A stretch of DNA of 64,000 nt, taken from NCBI RefSeq assembly GCF_030013595.1, contig NZ_CP122768.1; one strand, given 5' to 3'. How positions within the stretch are numbered: position 1 is the stretch's first letter; each line of letters opens with the position of its first letter. Below are positions 30,009 through 30,409 of this stretch, piece after piece. This stretch comes from Escherichia coli. Lineage in GTDB: Bacteria > Pseudomonadota > Gammaproteobacteria > Enterobacterales > Enterobacteriaceae. The notes below the pieces were generated by a model, which made no database searches, was not told the DNA's origin, and saw only the letters and a program-made list of their open reading frames with translations. A program made the position numbers and the translations under genes.

Positions 30009-30409
30009 TTAATTCGTGTACGTGATCTGGTACGTGATTTCCGCCATCGCCCAGGTGGCCATCTCATTATCACGTTGATAGTTAAAACCGAGTGGGATCA
30101 GGGTGTCGATGAGTCCGGAAAGTGCCGGTACATCATTCAGGGCCGGGAAAATGGTGCTCTCCATCCACATATCCAGCTCTGAATCCGGTGCCTGTGCCCG
30201 GATGAAGACAGCAATATGCAGAACAGCCTGCCAGTCATCTTCATCCGTCATTTTTCCGGTGTACTGAGCATCACTCAGCCACACCGCCACGGCAGGCAGT
30301 TCCTGCGCATCAACAAATGCCGGAAGCCCGTCAAAAAACGTGGCGCTGTCTCCACACTGTTCCCGAAGGCGTGCCAGTACGACCTGCGGATTTGTGTATG
30401 TCGGTTCAT
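30009..30409 (-). CDS. U: tail terminator protein U, apparent 5' frameshift
   Basis: ATG at 30409 overlaps the Z stop (ATGA) and gives MNRHTQIRR...; the lambda-U-like sequence VVLARLREQCGDSATFFDGLPAFVDAQELPAVAVWL continues in another frame. Confidence 0.6.

Follow-up and report, generated by a model that had tools for sequence, protein, structure and literature searches.

The tail terminator gene U

The tail terminator gene U, a homologue of the lambda gpU gene, lies on the minus strand at positions 30009–30409 of the window, i.e., the whole 64,000-nt stretch of Escherichia coli DNA that was analyzed. It is preceded by gene Z (30406–30984, minus strand), which encodes an intact tail completion protein of 192 aa (PF06763, 256.5 bits), and followed by gene V (29255–29998, minus strand), which encodes an intact major tail tube protein of 247 aa from the ATG at 29998 (PF16461, 224.1 bits, plus Big_2). 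The stop codon of Z (TGA, 30408–30406) overlaps the start codon of U (ATG, 30409–30407) as ATGA, just as the first-pass annotation of this DNA had described. U comprises 401 nt in the window, whereas it comprises 402 nt in all relatives.

Translation from the U start codon at 30409 yields MNRHTQIRRSYWHAFGNSVETAPRFLTGFRHLLMRRNCLPWRCG, a frame of 44 codons (30275–30409, minus strand) in which eight native residues (MNRHTQIR) are followed by 36 out-of-frame residues and the TGA at 30277–30275; no Pfam match was obtained for this 44-codon product. The lambda-like sequence, VVLARLREQCGDSATFFDG...ITYTN, stands in another frame and runs to the TAA at 30011–30009. This correct frame contains no ATG, GTG, or TTG before codon 41, and the remnant ORF that starts at GTG 30290 (30009–30290, minus strand) encodes 93 aa corresponding to U residues 41–133, without the β1 strand and the O-loop. 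An uninterrupted ORF of about 130 aa, as needed for the five-strand sheet, the O-loop, and the E-loop, is thus lacking from the window, where the frame changes at codon 9, while the near-identical copies of U have one.

The lesion is located at 30383–30389 (minus strand), where the window reads CCGCAGG and its relatives read CCGCCAGG. Alignment with intact homologues revealed that the missing base is one C of a CC pair, the surviving C being at window position 30386; three intact homologues have the codons ATC CGC CAG GTC, in contrast to ATC CGC AGG TC in the window. The affected codons 8–9 form a Dcm motif, CCAGG. A frame change some nine codons into U, caused by a 1-nt deletion between 30383 and 30392, had been claimed from the letters alone, along with a proposal to align the gene to intact gpU genes; the surviving C falls inside that interval, and the absent C proved to be the sole difference in 203 aligned bases.

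The restored product and the gpU family

When the missing base is restored, U encodes MNRHTQIRQVVLARL...ITYTN, a protein of 133 aa that matches the complete Phage_tail_U profile (PF06141, 203.9 bits against a cutoff of 25, profile positions 1–130 of 130); the 93-aa remnant alone scores 145.6 bits over profile positions 40–130. Residues 3–131 of the restored protein align to the lambda gpU structures 3FZB/1Z1Z with E ~3e-42, far above chance, and KHTELRAAVLDALEKHDTGATFFDG aligns to RHTQIRQVVLARLREQCGDSATFFDG, which bears out the lambda N-terminus given in the first-pass annotation. Additionally, U is placed between Z and V, followed by G, T, and H, i.e., in the position expected in a lambda-like tail operon, and its relatives are annotated alike. 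Judged by sequence and synteny, the window gene is a member of the lambda gpU/PF06141 family, from which this one sequence departs only in its broken frame.

In lambda gpU, the O-loop (residues 25–37, between β1 and β2) binds the head protein gpFII, and the E-loop (residues 45–58) binds gpV; each virion requires only six copies of U (PMC10721106). Lambda lacking gpU accumulates capsids and very long polytails (bioRxiv 10.1101/2024.10.16.618446).

The prophage and its cargo

Gene U is carried by an mEp460-like lambdoid prophage of ~45.4 kb (12091–57478) that lies between prfC and yjjG and is bounded by an imperfect, duplicated att core of 42 bp (12091–12132 and 57437–57478). The empty site, in which prfC is directly followed by yjjG, is found in the sister genomes HCP5S3_I2 and LCP30S3_I5, both pig isolates whose left flank is 100% identical to that of the window. 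ETEC-2265 and MS6192 have a prophage at the same site with the same layout, and that of ETEC-2265 also bears the same cargo. The att core is inside the 5′ coding end of prfC (12091–12179), such that the phage-borne copy rebuilds the prfC N-terminus and the displaced fragment adjoins yjjG.

The structural module (20545–37984) is 97.8% identical to that of the viable phage mEp460. In the late operon, on the minus strand, the genes follow the lambda order, beginning with the small and large terminase subunits, portal, a ClpP-protease/capsid fusion, a decoration protein, a Gifsy-2-family head-tail protein, Z, U, and V, and continuing with G, T, H, M, L, K, I, J, Lom, a tail fibre, and a tail fibre assembly protein. 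At the G/T chaperone junction (28798–28870, minus strand), G ends in CCG GAA AAG TCC TGA and the T frame lies at −1, as in lambda G/GT; the heptamer differs from the G GGA AAG of lambda and is unrelated to U.

Two sets of anti-phage defence genes are present in the prophage, one at each end. Next to prfC, on the plus strand (12683–14735), are a SLATT gene (PADLOC RTasSLATT, 2.4e-57) and a UG17-class defence reverse transcriptase (8.4e-159), and next to the integrase, on the minus strand (54026–55819), is an AbiU/AIPR protein (2.8e-111). A moron cluster (38374–43435) between the lysis and Q regions contains a prophage-borne tRNA-Gly(tcc) (40535–40609), an AraC-family regulator (41027–41878), a DUF6731 gene, an ORF of 147 aa, and a homologue of the ETEC6333 gene that is annotated as a lipopolysaccharide core heptose(II)-phosphate phosphatase.

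Distribution of the deletion allele

A segment centred on the lesion (69-nt query) is present in 1,826 of 5,426 complete E. coli genomes, at ~1,990 places, none of which matches the deletion allele over its full length without a gap; for 1,828 records the identity is in the 95–99% band, and among the matches listed, the 69 query bases align to 70, i.e., the CC pair is retained. The same holds for phage records (mEp460, cdtI, Ayreon, phi458, and others), which span 802–803 nt for an 801-nt query and in which a tail terminator is annotated. Exact searches with a 30-mer of the deletion allele found nothing in 241 million metagenome records, in IMG/VR, or in 100,044 species-representative genomes, whereas 10 IMG/VR contigs contain the intact 31-mer of U. 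At the protein level, the exact frameshift peptides of 44 aa and 48 aa are absent from a collection of 15 billion proteins; the 93-aa remnant occurs on 111 contigs, and the ten places inspected all have lesions other than that of the window.

Exact proteins of the window were also used as anchors (J, terminase, integrase, the AraC-family regulator, tape measure, and DUF6731), and every retrieved locus that spans U has an intact U. For the tape-measure protein, U is 133 aa in 5/5 places among the matches listed, under which another 15 contigs are grouped, their gene neighbourhoods being mostly alike. The U deletion is therefore, as far as these sequence collections reach, private to the window.

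Near-identical assemblies of the same prophage

This prophage is also represented, within the same chromosomal lineage, by four independent assemblies (L019/L052, L020, L053, and L055). Compared over 13–22 kb each, they differ from the window by 0–2 SNPs, none of which is private to the window, and all retain the U base. Together with one further locus (L033/L068, GCA_020386855.1, covering 32276–64000), they cover positions 9562–64000. L019/L052, from an NCTC strain (GCA_900448395.1) in which the prophage likewise adjoins prfC, is 100.000% identical to the window over 9562–24941 and differs over 24937–38497 by base 30386, one SNP at 37643, and an insertion sequence (IS) in gene L. L020 (GCA_025624855.1) is identical over 16,226 nt except for base 30386, while L053 differs by that base and two SNPs and L055 by that base and one SNP. 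The variant at 37643 is common to the window and L053, and that at 10555 to the window and L019; thus, neither is private to the window.

The IS, comprising HTH and rve ORFs, is located in tail gene L at 24937 in sibling strains including GCA_900448395.1 and is absent from the window; in several draft assemblies, a contig ends exactly at 24937. A structural defect in the tail operon is hence confirmed for these siblings and not for the window. Over the first 12 kb, the window aligns to a sister genome without gaps and with a sole SNP, at 10555, where CCTGG in the sister genome is CCTAG in the window, a C-to-T change at the methylated C of the other strand. An error at a Dcm site was considered for this SNP and rejected, since L019 has the same base; it is a real Dcm-site transition.

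Over the ~54 kb from 9562 to 64000, comparison of the window with near-identical assemblies yields 0 private substitutions, 0 insertions, and three single-base deletions, which fall in the Dcm motif CCAGG (30386), in a run of eight A shortened to seven (42076–42082), and in a run of seven G shortened to six (57579–57584). The second deletion (plus strand) frameshifts the DUF6731 gene (ATG 42048; 42048–42988, plus strand) after 11 codons (MATIAQSKKQK), such that the window reads MATIAQSKKQKNLKLVFT..* where its relatives read MATIAQSKKQKKLKIGFYTSSSG, leaving a remnant ORF of 237 aa (42275–42988). The run is A8 in L005, L041, L068, and L071, and A7 only in L069 (CP122775.1), which has its own T8-to-T7 difference and an extra-base difference nearby. 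The DUF6731 frameshift is probably a second consensus error giving a false pseudogene, although the A7 allele, being common to the window and L069, could be a real polymorphism. The G6 run (plus strand) is intergenic, by the yjjG stop, and is private to the window, with G7 in L033, the sister genome L004, ETEC-2265, and MS6192. A C8/C7 difference at 60759 was rejected as a further lesion of the window, in that the sister genome has C8 as well as the window, and the difference is that of L033 itself.

CCWGG motifs account for 1.1% of the comparable bases and runs of at least six for 0.9%, and the chance of two events being placed in those contexts is ~2e-4. The window has a deletion rate of ~5.5 per 100 kb and no private SNVs, i.e., a deletions-only profile within the range of 1–10 per 100 kb, the variant in U being private and the relatives having a methylation motif or a homopolymer at the three sites, as is expected of consensus errors.

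Besides U, the only disrupted genes found in the prophage are DUF6731 and a dinI-like gene (12342–12612, plus strand), which contains an internal TAG, changes frame near 12442, and is annotated in RefSeq as frameshifted. This frame change was considered as a second private frameshift and rejected, as it is shared at 100% with IAI39, ETEC-2265, and others. With 100% identity in at least 10 other genomes (IAI39, ETEC-2265, MS6192, and others), the dinI-like gene is, on the sequence comparison, a genuine inherited pseudogene at the prophage end. Inherited defects are thus shared across genomes, unlike the U deletion.

Origin of the frameshift

We consider it probable (roughly 0.78) that the U frameshift is an assembly artefact, that U is really intact, and that the prophage is probably functional. 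The lesion would then be a single-base consensus error introduced in a long-read-based assembly and would not be present in the bacterial DNA. We infer both the long-read origin of the source assembly and that the three deletions are errors; the window continues without a break through the points (16816, 24937, and 33040) at which draft contigs of this prophage stop, which suggests a long-read or finished assembly. The Dcm motif CCAGG at U codons 8–9 is a methylated site; 5-methylcytosine at sites of this type interferes with nanopore base-calling, and the residual errors most apt to outlast polishing are those in prophage DNA present more than once in a genome. In such repeated modules, correction with short reads is prone to fail, and E. 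coli genomes that contain the Z-U-V segment at all contain it at a median of 2 places. In real divergence, by comparison, mutation accumulation in E. coli produces about ten substitutions for each indel, so that three deletions without a single substitution are hard to obtain by evolution and easy to obtain by consensus error. With default ONT models, ~70% of consensus errors in Enterobacteriaceae were found in CCAGG/CCTGG (Wick et al. 2019, PMC6591954), the remaining errors being mostly wrong homopolymer lengths, and polishing cleared only part of the errors. A consensus error range of 1–10 per 100 kb is given for nanopore-type data (Sanderson et al. 2024, PMC11170131).

Under this artefact reading, the real U would be the intact 133-aa protein of every other copy, and, by analogy with the lambda structures (PMC10721106), would form a hexameric cap that halts polymerisation of the tail tube and offers a surface for head joining. 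The prophage would probably be a complete, inducible, mEp460-like lambdoid phage.

Several observations stand against an artefact. Homopolymer tracts mutate fast in vivo too. Only 1 of ~150 CCWGG sites in the window is affected, and real 5′ lesions of U exist elsewhere, such as the CTAGG amber allele described below; true inactivation of U is thus not rare. Furthermore, Dcm-site errors are stressed as C-to-T and G-to-A substitutions by Sanderson et al. (PMC11170131), and neither that study nor PMC6591954 calls Dcm-site errors typically deletions.

The principal alternative, which we regard as unlikely, is that the deletion is real and represents a very recent loss of function of the tail terminator in one isolate. 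The lesion is, after all, present in the sequence as given, and within the same 120 nt of U other genomes carry independent real lesions, namely deletions of 2 nt, of 11 nt, and of one A from an AA pair, as well as an amber allele (CCAGG to CTAGG) on at least two haplotypes. Both the phenotype of lambda U-minus mutants and what the missing N-terminus does structurally have been described (bioRxiv 10.1101/2024.10.16.618446; PMC10721106), defective prophages of the lambdoid type are frequent and can still be mobilised (PMC2669165), and the median of two Z-U-V places per genome is also in keeping with this alternative. However, the deletion is found in no other assembly of the same prophage and is accompanied by no private substitutions, three deletions without a substitution being unexpected at ~10 substitutions per indel. 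A CC dinucleotide is no natural indel hotspot, deamination at a Dcm site yields C-to-T and not a deletion, and a tail defect would bring no obvious gain to the host, as induced cells still lyse. A real deletion in U would count as inherited decay only if it were shared by descent, whereas this one is private. It was also observed that the T6-to-T5 and GGG-to-GG changes in U occur in assemblies that have other split or shortened genes near U.

The CTAGG allele converts Gln9 (CAG) to an amber codon at the very Dcm site of the lesion and occurs in L009, L011, and L015, the last being a Logan assembly of a public sequencing run, on at least two U haplotypes; no exact full-length match to the amber haplotype was found in complete genomes. 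This amber looks like the outcome of repeated deamination at a 5-methylcytosine hotspot, by which the tail terminator is inactivated. It is conceivable, if still more doubtful than a recent chance loss, that the window deletion is a real product of the same Dcm mutational hotspot, which would give C-to-T ambers elsewhere and a 1-nt deletion here, perhaps through faulty very-short-patch repair at a deaminated 5-methylcytosine. Were this true, host cytosine methylation would provide a recurrent, site-specific route by which the tails of a widespread prophage family are disabled while the defence cargo is kept.

A functional U encoded in two frames, through programmed −1 frameshifting (e.g., at T TTT TTG) or an alternative start, as with the neighbouring G/GT chaperone, is rejected as highly improbable. 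A T TTT TTG heptamer of the X XXY YYZ form does lie in register at codon 25 of the shifted frame (30332–30338, minus strand), the target frame already stands open a little before the U ATG, and a low yield of U could in principle suffice, with six copies per virion (PMC10721106). The heptamer was nonetheless rejected as a rescue site: a −1 slip at codon 25 would give a 133-aa product with residues 9–24 scrambled, and codon 41 is the first canonical start in the correct frame. The sequence C CGC AGG at the lesion offers no slippery site, the only in-register heptamer being 16 codons downstream. Moreover, recoding sites are conserved, whereas the two-frame arrangement was seen in no other genome, phage, or metagenome searched, and all relatives, including the viable phages mEp460 and cdtI, have a single-frame U. 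An on/off phase-variation switch at a short repeat, for which the 1-nt length change is the only point in favour, can be dismissed with similar assurance, as the tract is only CC where contingency loci use long homopolymers or multimers, and the ~1,990 complete-genome places hold no gap-free full-length match to the deletion allele, those listed carrying CC.

Consequences of the two readings

The first-pass annotation had left the choice between a real defect, in which the prophage could not make complete tails, and a sequencing error; the private base, the Dcm motif, the two homopolymer deletions, and the lack of private substitutions favour the error, and a tail-defective prophage that keeps its cargo is not the likeliest outcome. 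The inference of a tail defect from an absent U would nevertheless be sound if the deletion were real. In that case, induction would be predicted to give DNA-filled heads and over-long polytails that are unable to join, and no infectious particles, while the only in-frame restart, GTG 30290, would give the 93-aa fragment. The chromosome would keep the defence cargo (AbiU, and the DRT UG17 reverse transcriptase with its SLATT partner), and rescue would need U in trans from another lambdoid prophage, or recombination. Even then, the term defective would need a caveat, considering that mobilisation through other prophages is possible (PMC2669165).

Taken at face value, the frameshift would class a probably intact, inducible, defence-carrying prophage as defective, and both U and DUF6731 would be annotated as pseudogenes from single-base consensus errors. 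As a practical rule, we propose that if a 1-nt deletion is private, lies in CCWGG or a run of at least seven, and comes without substitutions relative to near-identical genomes, it be treated as an assembly artefact unless reads show the contrary. Neither reading implies anything new, as there is probably no real feature, or else an ordinary fresh pseudogene with a phenotype known from lambda U mutants.

Comparison with known systems

The window lesion closely resembles the nanopore errors described for Dcm sites and homopolymers (PMC6591954; PMC11170131), for which the motif, the homopolymer shortenings, the deletions-only profile, and the rate of ~5 per 100 kb all fit. It departs from that class in the single CCWGG site affected out of ~150, and if this were the cause, the assembly would have been largely polished. 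The resemblance to 5-methylcytosine deamination hotspots is limited to the site, in that the same CCAGG of U is hit elsewhere as C-to-T, whereas the window deletion is not predicted by deamination.

Compared with the defective lambdoid prophages of O157 Sakai (Asadulghani et al. 2009, PMC2669165), the window would, if the deletion is real, contain a further lambdoid prophage in which one morphogenesis gene is defective and the accessory genes are retained. However, the defects of the Sakai prophages are inherited and shared within lineages, while the window lesion is private to one sequence.

The closest counterparts of the gene itself are lambda gpU and the terminators of the mEp460 group. 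Lambda gpU (PDB 1Z1Z, 3FZ2, and 3FZB; in the virion, 8IYD and 8K37) has in common with the window gene the order Z-U-V-G-T-H and the ATGA coupling to Z, and it comprises 131 aa as against 133 aa for the restored window U, the window copy being 1 nt short as written. The tail terminator gp09 of mEp460 (NC_019716, F853_gp09), that of phage cdtI, and WP_001079419.1 of ETEC-2265 are encoded in Z-U-V segments with 97.9–99.8% nucleotide identity to that of the window and, unlike the window copy, contain the extra C and one open frame.
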